Positions 1 through 9,480 of a stretch of 14,588 nucleotides of DNA are shown one piece after another. A model generated the notes under the pieces. That model searched no databases, was not told the origin of the DNA, and saw only the letters and a list, made by a program, of their open reading frames with translations. Origin of the DNA: a virus; the UHGV virus genome UHGV-1840666; one strand, given 5' to 3'. How positions within the stretch are numbered: the first letter of the stretch is position 1; the number at the start of each line of letters is the position of its first letter. Both the position numbers and the translations under genes were made by a program.

Positions 1-65
1 ACGGTATTTCCCGCGTGGTGTATGACATCAGCGGCAAGCCACCAGCAACTATTGAGTGGGAATGA
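1..65 (+). CDS. guaA: 3-prime end of upstream host-like gene, resembling the GMP synthase (GuaA) C-terminus; partial, continues left of window
   Basis: Frame 3 translates to ...GISRVVYDISGKPPATIEWE then TGA at 63-65. The ...PPATIEWE ending matches my recollection of enterobacterial GuaA; not verified. Confidence 0.45.
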   Translation, partial: GISRVVYDISGKPPATIEWE

Positions 66-113
66 TTAATAGCTAACTCATAGCAAATCATTTCTATTCA
101 GACACTAACTCAA

Positions 114-143
114 CCTCTGTTTTTACAGAGGGTTTTTGTTTTT
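114..143 (+). terminator. Rho-independent terminator after the guaA-like gene
   Basis: Stem CCTCTG (114-119) / CAGAGG (126-131), loop TTTTTA, followed by GTTTTTGTTTTT. Confidence 0.6.
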
Positions 144-256
144 ATGTATTCATTTCTATTCACTCTACACCATATTTTTCGGCGGTACAGGTGACGGTAT
201 TACCTTAAAGGTATACTCTCATACCGTCATGAAAATGGTTTCTATACGGGTGAATT

Positions 257-1506
257 GTGCTTACCGATACAAAATTAAAAAACCTCAAGCCGCAGGACAA
301 ACTGTACAAGGTCTCCGATCGTGACGGGCTGTATGTAGCTGTGCTTACGTCAGGCACGGTCTCGTTTCGCTACGACTACCGTATCAACGGTCGCCGCGAA
401 ACGCTGGTAATCGGGCAGTATGGGCGTGACGGTATCAGCCTGGCAGAAGCGCGAGAAGAACTGATTGCTGCAAAGAAGCTGCTTAAAGCAGGCCAGTCAC
501 CGGCTGCGGCTAAACGTGACGGTATCAAAAAGATTCGTGGTGCCGAGACGTTTGCGGTACATACCGACAGTTATATGAAACACGTCATCCTGGCTGACAG
601 TACCCGCGCAATGAAACAGGCGGTGATCGACCGTGACATACTTCCGGTTCTTGGCAATAAAATGATGGCTGAAATTACCACATCGATGGTTCGTGATTTG
701 TGTGACCGGATTGTCGAACGCGGTGGCCGGGCAACAGCAGTGCAGGCCAGGGAGATCATCAGTAGCGTATACCGTCACGCCAATGACCGTGGTCATGGTT
801 TGTTTAATCCTGCGGCTGACATTAAACCTTCGTCTATCGCCATATTTAAACCAAGAGAGCGAACACTGACACCAGAAGAAATTGGCCTGTTCTTCCGCAC
901 GCTGGATGCCATTGGTGCTATGGCACTATGAAAATGGCTTTAAAGCTGGTGCTTATCACTATGGTTCGTAAAGGCGAATTCACCAACGCAACGTGGGATG
1001 AAATAGATTTTAAAAAATGGACATGGACCATTCCTTCAGACCGCATGAAGGGAAGCCGGGCGCACGTTATTTACCTGCCTAAACAGGCTCAGGATATATT
1101 GGTCGGATTGCAGATGTGCGCTGGTGGAAGTGAATATCTGGTTCCTGGTCGTTACAATTTCCGGAAGCCATTATCTAATGCCGCGCTGAACTCTCTGATC
1201 GACAGAACGGTGAAAATAATAAATGAAGATGGTGAGCATATTCAGGGCTTCACCGTACACGATATGCGCCGTACAGCCAGTACATTGTTGCATGAGGCTG
1301 GTTATCCTTCAGACTGGATTGAAAAGGCTCTGGCACATGAGCAGAAAGGTGTGCGCGCCGTATATAACAAAGCGGAATACGCCAGACAGCGCGCCTACAT
1401 GTTGCAGCAGTGGGCCGATATGATTGATTCCTGGATTGACGGGGAGCATACGGATCTGATTCCGTTCTCCCCGTCGAAGTTTGAGAAGTGGATGGCGGGG
1501 GAATAA
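257..1506 (+). CDS. int: Tyrosine recombinase, P4-type phage integrase (N-terminal DUF4102-like arm-binding region plus C-terminal catalytic domain); split into two ORFs (257-931, 928-1506) by a frameshift near 925-935
   Basis: N-terminal ORF (GTG start) has LTDTKLKNLKP...YRINGRRETLVIGQYG typical of P4-like integrases. C-terminal ORF has VLITMVRKGEF...HDMRRTASTLL...YNKAEYARQ (R/H-x-x-R and Tyr region). Combined about 415 aa. Frame change 2 to 1 is consistent with a 1-bp deletion. Confidence 0.85.
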
Positions 1507-6351: not shown

Positions 6352-6428
6352 TTACCGTTGAGGTAATAATTATGCGTATTTGGTTTGATGTCAATAGATA
6401 TGAGTTAAAAAAATTACCCATAAGGTAA
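6352..6428 (-). promoter_or_regulatory. Leftward early (PL-like) promoter with two flanking operators
   Basis: Palindromes TTACCgttgaGGTAA (6352-6366) and TTACCcataaGGTAA (6414-6428) flank a perfect -35 TTGACA on the minus strand (6394-6389); AT-rich -10 region is ambiguous. An extra half-site TTACC lies at 6339-6343. Confidence 0.5.
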
Positions 6429-6485: not shown

Positions 6486-7069
6486 TTATTGTTTGCTTCT
6501 TTCGTTCTGGCTGATGACAAATTCAATGTAACTTTCGATCTTTGCCTTCTCTGTTTCGGGTAACAATGCGTAGCGCGAGCGGTCATAGTTGATAGTCGCA
6601 GGGTCGTGCGGGTGAATCAGTAATTCATAGCCGTGACGCCCGAATGCGGATGCAACATTCTCCAGGGTGGAAATGGAAACGCTGACTTCATTGTTTAACA
6701 GGCGGCTGATTGTCACCTGGCGACGCCGGATGCGCGGTGTAGTTTTCCCTGCGTTGAAAGGTCGCGGCTTTCGCTCATCCAGCGTTCCAGGTTGTGAGCC
6801 GCCAGCTGACCAATGTCGCTTGGGCCGACAGGCTGAAACCCCTCCTGAGAAAGCGAGCGATCGATATCAAGCCAGTTACGGGGTTTATTGGCGGCAGCTT
6901 CAATTTTTCGCGCAACCTGGTCGCCGATAACCTTCTTGCCAAGAGCCCAGCGGTTTACCAGATTTGCCTGAGTTCCAAGTTTTTCTGCCATCCGCGTCTG
7001 AACACCATTGAATTCACGGTCGATCAAGTCGTTGAGATTTTGCCTGCGGACGTCCTGGATACTTTTCAT
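6486..7069 (-). CDS. Phage immunity repressor with two tandem XRE-type HTH domains and no S24 peptidase domain; split by a 1-bp frameshift near 6714-6720
   Basis: N-terminal ORF ...GVQTRMAEKLGTQANLVNRWALGKKVIGDQVARKIEAAANKPRNWLD (HTH 1). After the shift the sequence reads ...LSTQGKLHRASGVAR-VTISRLLNNEVSVSISTLENVASAFG... (HTH 2). Sits between the two operator clusters, divergent from the Cro-like gene. Confidence 0.8.
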
Positions 7070-7124: not shown

Positions 7125-7187
7125 TTACCCAACAGGTAAATGCACCTCATAGGTAACTATCCTTGATTTTTGTTACCTTATGGGTGA
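7125..7187. promoter_or_regulatory. Tripartite operator region (OR-like) between the repressor and cro-like genes
   Basis: TTACCcaacaGGTAA (7125-7139), GCACCtcataGGTAA (7142-7156, imperfect), TTACCttatgGGTGA (7173-7187, imperfect); candidate -35 TTGATT at 7163-7168. Confidence 0.5.
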
Positions 7188-7476: not shown

Positions 7477-7498
7477 GACCGCCACCCGGCGGTCTTTT
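7477..7498 (+). terminator. Rho-independent terminator after the cro-like gene (tR1-like position)
   Basis: GACCGCC (7477-7483) / GGCGGTC (7488-7494) stem, ACCC loop, then TTTT. Confidence 0.6.
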
Positions 7499-7602
7499 CA
7501 TATCTATTCGTACCTCAAAGGTAATAAAAAACCAAATCTGGTTGATCAAATTTTCCAATTGTGCAAAATATCCAATATCAATAACAAAAAGAGGCGGAAA
7601 AA

Positions 7603-9403: not shown

Positions 9404-9480
9404 TTACCTGTGAGGTAATAAAATATTCTAAACTCTATTGATTTCGTGTCTTATGTGGTTTTTAATTACCTCAGGGGTAA
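9404..9480 (+). promoter_or_regulatory. Second repressor-controlled promoter module driving the rightward accessory operon
   Basis: TTACCtgtgaGGTAA (9404-9418), -35 TTGATT (9438-9443), 17-bp spacer, -10 TTTAAT (9461-9466), TTACCtcaggGGTAA (9466-9480). Spacing is identical to the leftward module at 6352-6428. Confidence 0.5.

Follow-up and report, generated by a model that had tools for sequence, protein, structure and literature searches.

In phage lambda, integrase expression is tied to the lysis-lysogeny circuit: the promoter PI is activated by CII, and read-through from PL is subject to control through sib. In KplE1 (CPS-53) and in P4, the promoters of intS and int, respectively, overlap attL and are repressed by the integrase and by the excision factor (PMC2951348). 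Closer to the locus analysed here are phages epsilon15 and SPC32H. The RefSeq record of epsilon15 (NC_004775) labels seven ATTACC-N5-GGTAAT sites as repressor sites and four copies of the 10-mer GTGACGGTAT as integrase-binding. For SPC32H, the structure of the repressor, Rep, has been solved (PDB 5D50), and the protein is reported to bind well only when, as a tetramer, it engages pairs of palindromes (PMC9638917). Here we describe an element at positions 191-230 of a 14,588-nt stretch of viral DNA, UHGV-1840666 (hereafter the window, to which all coordinates refer unless stated otherwise). A phiV10/epsilon15-like prophage (Uetakevirus) has inserted at the 3′ end of E. coli guaA, and the window covers its left end, attL; the element precedes a P4-like integrase gene, int. 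By motif family, the element is made of two unrelated parts, namely outer arms of integrase type and an inner palindrome of repressor type. We regard it as a probable composite control region in the P′ arm of the attachment (att) site, with the core about 125-160 bp to its left and int starting 30-65 bp downstream of it. This degree of confidence is a joint one: it covers the whole explanation, in which the arms are sites for the integrase, the palindrome is an operator and both serve the regulation of int.

Such a region would share several features with the systems mentioned above. As in KplE1 and P4, int adjoins attL and is transcribed away from the core (core at 51-67 and int at 257-1506, on the same strand), it lies outside the operon of the excision factor gene, and arm-type sites surround what may be a −10 region, here a −10-like TATACT at which a promoter scan calls no promoter. 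These two elements differ from the present one in using a tRNA gene as target, whereas here a protein gene, guaA, is used at its 3′ end, and a candidate repressor-operator copy, not described for KplE1 or P4, is located between the arm sites. As in lambda, integrase expression appears to be linked to the lysis-lysogeny circuit. However, int converges here on the early-left operon, and the proposed link to immunity is direct repression rather than activation or retroregulation. With the annotated epsilon15 repressor sites and the SPC32H Rep system the inner palindrome has in common the palindrome family, the 5-nt spacing, the intergenic placing and a homologous repressor.

A preliminary description of the region had reported an inverted repeat, GACGGTAT at 193-200 and ATACCGTC at 221-228, enclosing TACCTTAAAGGTA at 201-213, and all three strings are present as reported. 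The repeat turned out to be longer: it is perfect over 9 nt (TGACGGTAT at 192-200 and ATACCGTCA at 221-229), and it spans 10 nt with one mismatch when taken as 191-200 and 221-230. The enclosed DNA had also been said to match the repressor operator consensus with one mismatch at 205-219. The single mismatch holds for the 15-mer TTACC-N5-GGTAA, but the match (TTACCttaaaGGTAt / TTACCTTAAAGGTAT) is located at 200-214; compared with the 17-mer ATTACC-N5-GGTAAT, the site at 199-215 agrees at 10 of the 12 specified positions. Its distance from the integrase, given as 40-60 bp, is right, as the centre of the palindrome (207) is 50 bp before the int GTG at 257. Finally, the element had been interpreted as either an immunity operator or an arm-type site. 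Both interpretations find support, but they concern separate sub-elements that had been merged into one: the outer inverted repeats carry the integrase-linked, arm-type motif, and the inner palindrome alone belongs to the repressor-operator family. Two base pairs (199-200) are common to the inner operator and the left arm site, and a gap of 5 bp separates the operator from the right arm site.

Comparison with bacterial and phage genomes identifies 193-228 as P′-arm DNA of the phage and not host DNA. In nearly all of the 5426 complete E. coli genomes the match is limited to 1-67, with divergence from position 68 in empty-site strains, whereas the first 1600 bases are carried whole by 566 of them, so that about one in ten has this integrase beside guaA. 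In free phages (phiV10, vB_EcoP_ZX5, O157 typing phages, Tyrion, SPN1S and other members of Uetakevirus) the match starts at 51, and the same is true of a 41-kb circular ‘plasmid’ that is actually a phage genome. Since empty-site genomes stop matching at 67 and free or circular phages match from 51, the element is phage-derived. The possibility that the palindrome is host intergenic sequence present also in prophage-free strains, which the preliminary description had named as fatal to its reading, is thereby ruled out. The att limits follow from aligning attB from an empty-site strain, attL from the window and attR from a 99.8%-identical prophage (NZ_CP126926). The core common to all three has been published as the attP core of ZX5, phiV10 and epsilon15 (PMC9782041). 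The intrinsic terminator that the phage brings along substitutes for the guaA terminator and protects int from read-through. As to the circular genome (NZ_CP079768, ‘plasmid pSF10EC-3’; locus L007), it is a Uetakevirus genome with attP intact, either excised or episomal, that was deposited as a plasmid. Table 1 lists the features of the window.

Table 1. Coordinates of features in the window (a dot in the strand column marks features given without a strand)
Feature	Position	Strand	Remarks
Host guaA, 3′ end	1-65	+	Stop codon 63-65; every E. coli genome that matches has it annotated as guaA
att core ATTGAGTGGGAATGATT (overlap region of attL)	51-67	.	Common to attB, attL and attR
Intrinsic terminator, phage-borne	114-141	+	Scan: 7-bp stem and T-run; annotated terminator in phiV10 and epsilon15
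Degenerate direct copy of arm motif, GGCGGTAC	181-188	+	12 bp from the start of its CGGTA core to the start of the next copy's core
Candidate arm-type site GTGACGGTAT, left arm of the inverted repeat	191-200	+	Homologous 10-mer labelled ‘integrase’ in the epsilon15 record
Rep operator-like palindrome ATTACCTTAAAGGTATA	199-215	.	Core TACC-N5-GGTA at 201-213; ATTACC-TTAAA-GGTATA
−10-like hexamer TATACT, putative int promoter element	212-217	+	Overlaps right half-site of the operator-like palindrome
Inverted copy of arm motif, ATACCGTCAT, right arm	221-230	-	One mismatch to GTGACGGTAT; less conserved
Integrase gene (int), P4-like tyrosine recombinase	257-1506	+	Split by 1-base deletion near 921
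GTGACGGTAT copy inside int	426-435	+	Labelled ‘integrase’ site in epsilon15
GTGACGGTAT copy inside int	516-525	+	Labelled ‘integrase’ site in epsilon15
Inverted GTGACGGTAT copy inside int	769-778	-	Position +513; present only in the window and L015
Left operator pair, TTACCGTTGAGGTAA (6352-6366) and TTACCCATAAGGTAA (6414-6428)	6352-6428	.	62 bp apart, around leftward early promoter
Rep repressor gene	6486-7069	-	Split by 1-base deletion at 6718
Right operators (7125-7139, 7142-7156, 7173-7187)	7125-7187	.	Between rep and cro-like gene
Single operator (core 7511)	7510-7524	.	After terminator of cro-like gene
Operator pair (cores 9405, 9467)	9404-9480	.	62 bp apart, upstream of DUF1064 gene

The outer arms belong to a motif that accompanies the integrase. 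With at most one mismatch, GTGACGGTAT occurs five times in the window against 0.53 expected, a number reached in 0 of 200 shuffles, and all five copies are confined to 191-778. In an alignment of 14 sequences (A1), the left arm TGACGGTAT is invariant, and so is the CGGTA of the degenerate copy preceding it. The right arm is more variable: among the 13 relatives that could be scored in register, its complementarity to the left arm is 9/9 in five, 8/9 in five and 7/9 in three, and in BUCT554, where it reads ATAGCGACA, we count 6/9 by eye. The motif is present at the opposite end of the prophage as well. At attR, the P arm reads GGTGACGGTAT-ataaa-ACGGTAT, 71 bp from the core, and the circular attP has the same sequence. 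The P arm thus carries GTGACGGTAT plus ACGGTAT, so that the repeats are found on both attP arms and are distinct from the core. In these respects, and in the presence of an arm-binding N-terminal domain in the integrase, they resemble the 10-mers of epsilon15 and the arm sites of lambda and P4 type. The intact homologue of the window's integrase matches the Pfam families Arm-DNA-bind_3 (residues 2-87, E = 4e-20), Phage_int_M and Phage_integrase.

The association of motif and integrase extends well beyond Uetakevirus. We collected 47 loci with integrase relatives, one genome per species. The core of the motif, GACGGTA, is 39-fold enriched upstream of int (37 loci), as far as Betaproteobacteria. 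Summed over the 38 loci examined, its density is 6.85 per kb within 450 bp upstream of int and 0.18 per kb in the rest of these loci. Every upstream copy falls in the 32 loci whose int has an identity of at least 47%; upstream of the five int genes with identity of 38% or less there is none. Even in Betaproteobacteria, where nothing else upstream can be aligned, the motif appears in both direct and inverted copies. The four copies labelled as integrase-binding in epsilon15 include the homologue of 191-200 and two inside int; the inverted copy homologous to 221-230 is not annotated. These observations point to the outer arms as arm-type sites for the N-terminal domain of the phage's own P4-like integrase, a part of the explanation that we consider probable within the joint confidence given above. 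We also considered the CGGTA-N7-CGGTA repeats as sites of a CII-type activator and set this reading aside, because the motif tracks the integrase lineage into elements with unrelated regulatory genes.

A feature unusual for arm sites is that two or three more copies lie inside int, at least one of them with conservation at synonymous sites. The copies at 426-435 and 516-525, some 170-260 bp inside the gene, are both perfect and both encode R-D-G-I with the same codons. The GACGGTA of the second (at +261) is kept in 16 of 17 other loci with an int at least 59% identical (L010-L024, L031); L025-L030 do not keep it. In 22 int genes, reaching down to about 60% protein identity, the codons for D58 (GAC) and G59 (GGT), in the copy at 426-435, are 100% identical, and only 4 of 183 columns with a conserved residue show such codon invariance. 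Since these codons never change and such columns are rare, selection appears to act here on the DNA itself.

The inner palindrome, on the other hand, belongs with the repressor sites. TACC-N5-GGTA occurs seven times in the window against 0.06 expected, and seven copies were reached in 0 of 200 shuffles. The left pair (cores at 6353 and 6415) lies between the early-left genes and the 3′ end of rep, and among the right operators the one at 7126 is an exact TACC-N5-GGTA, those at 7143 and 7174 being near-copies. In the complete 41-kb phage, 11 of the 12 sites fall into the 8.5% of the DNA that is intergenic (P about 2e-11). The palindrome at 199-215 is intergenic like the other members of the family, with the terminator on one side and the start of int on the other. 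When the seven labelled epsilon15 sites alone are used to build a matrix, this palindrome ranks fourth in the window with 16.2 bits, above four sites of the immunity region. In the 14 relatives, the half-sites TTACC and GGTAT are invariant and the 5-nt spacer takes eight forms, which is the pattern expected of a site bound by a dimer. In phiV10 and in SPC32H the site is identical and located 56 bp upstream of int. The repressor itself, in its intact homologue, matches the SPC32H repressor chain (5d50_A) with E = 4.5e-42 and the Pfam family HTH_3. We therefore place 199-215 in the Rep operator family and treat it as a candidate Rep site, again probable as part of the joint explanation.

Two further observations concern this family. 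The operator pairs are found at two places with a spacing of exactly 62 bp (about six helical turns), kept in L010, L012, L013 and L016-L019, and this fits the published idea of a Rep tetramer holding two palindromes. A lone TTACC half-site at 262-266 (int codons 2-3) also happens to be exactly 62 bp downstream of the operator TTACC (200-204), with the other half missing; this spacing is probably a coincidence. In addition, the 12 repressor-type sites of the circular phage include copies upstream of the portal region, the tailspike region and the BRO-N (antirepressor-like) gene, so that Rep action may be genome-wide and not confined to the immunity region.

The palindrome mostly, though not always, goes together with Rep. 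The site is found at −55 or −56 of int in all eight close relatives for which the operator family was recovered downstream. In two further elements, the int-upstream region is built differently from that of the window and the arm orientations are reversed. In both of them, from Pantoea (L021) and Rahnella (L035), a palindrome resembling the operator nevertheless lies between two arm sites, the one inverted and the other direct: TACCAGATTGGTA at −42 in the former and TCACCATTTTGGTAT at −46 in the latter, with Rep homologues that are 47% and 46% identical, respectively. Relatives without a Rep homologue have kept the arm sites and have neither the palindrome nor the rest of the operator family. 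Chance could be invoked, in the form of a palindrome in conserved but functionless phage DNA, given that a 9-nt inverted repeat with a short gap is not unusual in itself (the window has four others with separated arms, I5, I6, I12 and I13) and that close relatives share ancestry, which makes conservation alone a weak argument. Yet both motif families are far above expectation, variation is seen in the spacer and in the downstream flank but not in the half-sites, and the palindrome occurs independently in the rearranged contexts of L021 and L035. We find an origin by chance extremely improbable.

The same data bear on the idea that the whole of 181-230 is a cluster of integrase sites, with the inner palindrome made of degenerate arm half-sites (AGGTAT / AGGTAA), int purely autoregulated and the likeness to an operator coincidental. 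The half-site GGTA(A/T) does recur within CGGTA(T/A), the arm motif, a full arm 7-mer, ACGGTAT, even makes up the right half in K. pneumoniae ATCC 13883, and int promoters that overlap attL are known to be autoregulated (PMC2951348). However, distant relatives that have 3-7 GACGGTA copies upstream (several in the order +,+,-,+) and lack Rep have no TACC-N5-GGTA palindrome. The palindrome has retained an ATTACC flank and a spacing of exactly 5 nt, both typical of the operator family, and it reappears, in another arrangement, with the Rep-bearing relatives from Pantoea and Rahnella. Moreover, the C of CGGTA, invariant in both copies within 181-200 in the 14 relatives, is missing from both halves of the palindrome in 13 of the 14. 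A cluster serving the integrase alone thus seems to us decidedly unlikely.

How might an operator at this place act on int? The gene converges on the early-left operon, hence the leftward early promoter cannot serve it, and the terminator at 114-141 stands in the way of transcripts entering from guaA or, in the circular form, from the lysis genes. For these reasons, int needs a promoter of its own within 142-256. The sole conserved −10-like hexamer upstream of int is TATACT at 212-217: its TATA is invariant, the last T is present in 12 of 14 relatives, and two relatives have TATAAT. We propose that the inner palindrome is an extra Rep operator, possibly used also by the Cro-like protein, which would share the Rep sites. 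In the lysogen, Rep bound at 199-215 would block a weak int promoter. With the operator lying across the only −10-like hexamer and directly against an Int site, Rep would hold int off, and it is in this way that Rep probably keeps the integrase silent in the lysogen. Removal of Rep by an antirepressor would turn int on together with the early-left operon, which encodes an AlpA-type excisionase. Thereafter Int, by occupying the flanking arm sites, might hold down its own production, in the manner of other attL-overlapping int promoters such as those of KplE1 intS and P4 int (PMC2951348).

Annotation of epsilon15 points to a different role. This phage has an int-upstream site of its own (TTACCCTAAAGGTAT at 26882-26896 of its genome), but the record does not label it as a repressor site; the homologous stretch, 26874-26912, is labelled as an RNase III site instead. 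Accordingly, the 39-nt inverted repeat might work at the RNA level: the int leader would form a hairpin there, which RNase III cuts or which otherwise controls mRNA stability or translation. RNA of 188-233 does fold well (−16.1 kcal/mol; z-score −3.65), and just 1 of 200 shuffles did as well. Nevertheless, the left arm is invariant and the changes in the right arm are one-sided, with no compensatory pair in the 13 in-register relatives or in BUCT554, and the inner stem is just the operator palindrome, which recurs at many untranscribed promoter regions. In addition, the left arm would not be transcribed at all if TATACT at 212-217 is the −10 element, transcription from further upstream is blocked by the terminator, and a search of 1-1600 against Rfam gave no match with E up to 1. 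Taken together, these data make an RNA-level role very unlikely.

Several observations weigh against regulation of int by Rep, and most of them concern the promoter and the strength of the operator. A promoter scan of 1-400 has no sigma-70 promoter that passes, TATACT lacks an acceptable −35 element, and its final T is lost in two of the 14 relatives. A search for a −35 by hand found only GTGACG at 15-bp spacing and, further upstream, a weak TTCATT-16-CATATT, neither of them convincing. As no promoter passes the scan, the overlap between operator and promoter, and with it the transcription start, is an assumption of the model. The matrix score of 16.2 bits is just above the 95th percentile (15.5 bits) of best scores in shuffled windows. 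Unlike the annotated epsilon15 repressor sites, the window copy departs from the 17-mer consensus at both outermost right-hand positions (GGTATA versus GGTAAT) and is a lone site with no partner nearby, at variance with the tetramer on paired palindromes that is reported for SPC32H Rep; such a site could be weak, or it could be bridged to a distant one. The overlap of GGTA(A/T) with the arm motif, by which Int rather than Rep might recognise the half-sites, counts here as well.

The phylogenetic evidence also has its counterweights. The close relatives that share the site are not independent observations. An element from Morganella psychrotolerans (L022) has a 34%-identical Rep and operators of its own but no matching site beside int, so the arrangement is not universal. 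Its operators, TGACC-N5-GGTCA/GGTAA at 18431-18445 and 19233-19263 of that locus, are altered in a way that suggests a different immunity specificity. Among the relatives examined for covariation they are the only altered ones: in a comparison with heteroimmune relatives, all Uetakevirus examined share the half-sites, even epsilon15 with a Rep of only 43% identity. When viral contigs were scanned with Rep, once as a single sequence and once as an alignment, only phages that are 98-100% identical were returned, and no Rep-bearing phage with another integrase family was found in the two scans. At 23 viral-contig loci the element is identical across its length, with a substitution 13 nt downstream of the right arm at one locus; being near-identical, these loci add no independent information.

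In the absence of a convincing promoter, one may ask whether Rep at 199-215 acts mainly on recombination, by blocking the excisive complex at attL until it is removed. The close packing of the sites, with the operator overlapping one arm site and nearly touching the other, is in line with this, and the recurrence of the arm/operator/arm sandwich in Pantoea and Rahnella with reversed arm orientations fits a constraint on position relative to the Int sites, not to a promoter. However, an int promoter located within the P′ arm, as in KplE1, would predict the same arrangement equally well. In addition, the right arm site is weakly conserved, and the Morganella relative has no such operator beside int. 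We therefore consider a mainly recombinational role unlikely, and we are equally doubtful about a dual one, in which Rep on attL would both silence int and bar Int from the excisive complex, excision following once the antirepressor has stripped Rep from the DNA. The nearest parallel to a repressor that licenses recombination is that of phage Mu, which blocks the transposition enhancer; to our knowledge, no such direct recombination role of a repressor is known for a tyrosine-integrase phage. Repression of int by Rep within an Int-bound P′ arm is the explanation we favour.

Some other properties of the window deserve mention. A second repeated motif, TCATWTCTATTC, is present at 88-99, 150-161, 6392-6403 (minus strand) and 7498-7509. 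The first two copies lie in the P′ arm, one on each side of the terminator and 62 bp from each other, the third overlaps the −35 region of the leftward early promoter, and the fourth abuts the operator after the cro-like gene. The 41-kb phage has four copies against 0.37 expected, and they are highly conserved in relatives (alignment A1); as an IHF site the motif is a poor match. Compared with NZ_CP126926, the window has 12 single-base indels (at 113, 921, 2312, 2508, 2974, 3942, 4566, 4672, 6718, 8152, 9105 and 9524) and only about five substitutions over 10.3 kb. Most of the indels are one G or C missing from a short run, and they split int (stop at 929-931), the methyltransferase, the DGQHR gene, the AlpA-type gene, bet, the Rep repressor gene and others. 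This pattern looks like long-read assembly error and not like real pseudogenes. A near-identical prophage (L005, 20164-23283; NZ_CP126926 has the same prophage type), from an O2:K1:H5 avian pathogenic strain, encodes an endosialidase tailspike, and the endosialidase-bearing prophage is a K1-capsule-specific member of the phiV10/epsilon15 group.

Part of this picture was already in place: both motif families had been recognised by sequence in the annotation of epsilon15, and the att core has been published. What appears to be new is that the int-upstream copy is to be grouped with the repressor sites and not labelled as an RNase III site, that the inverted arm is a further repeat of integrase type, and that the two seem to form a control region for repressor and integrase at a putative int promoter inside attL. 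The result corrects a database label and adds one site to the predicted Rep regulon; it changes no general principle. For this group of phages, which includes serotype-converting and K1-capsule-specific members, it would mean that an immunity input has been added to a self-regulated int promoter of the KplE1/P4 type. If Rep does repress int at its own promoter, the supply of integrase would be tied to immunity by a simple direct route, in a scheme that differs both from lambda and from the purely self-regulated KplE1 and P4, and that would account for the joint activation, at induction, of int and of an excisionase gene transcribed separately from it.

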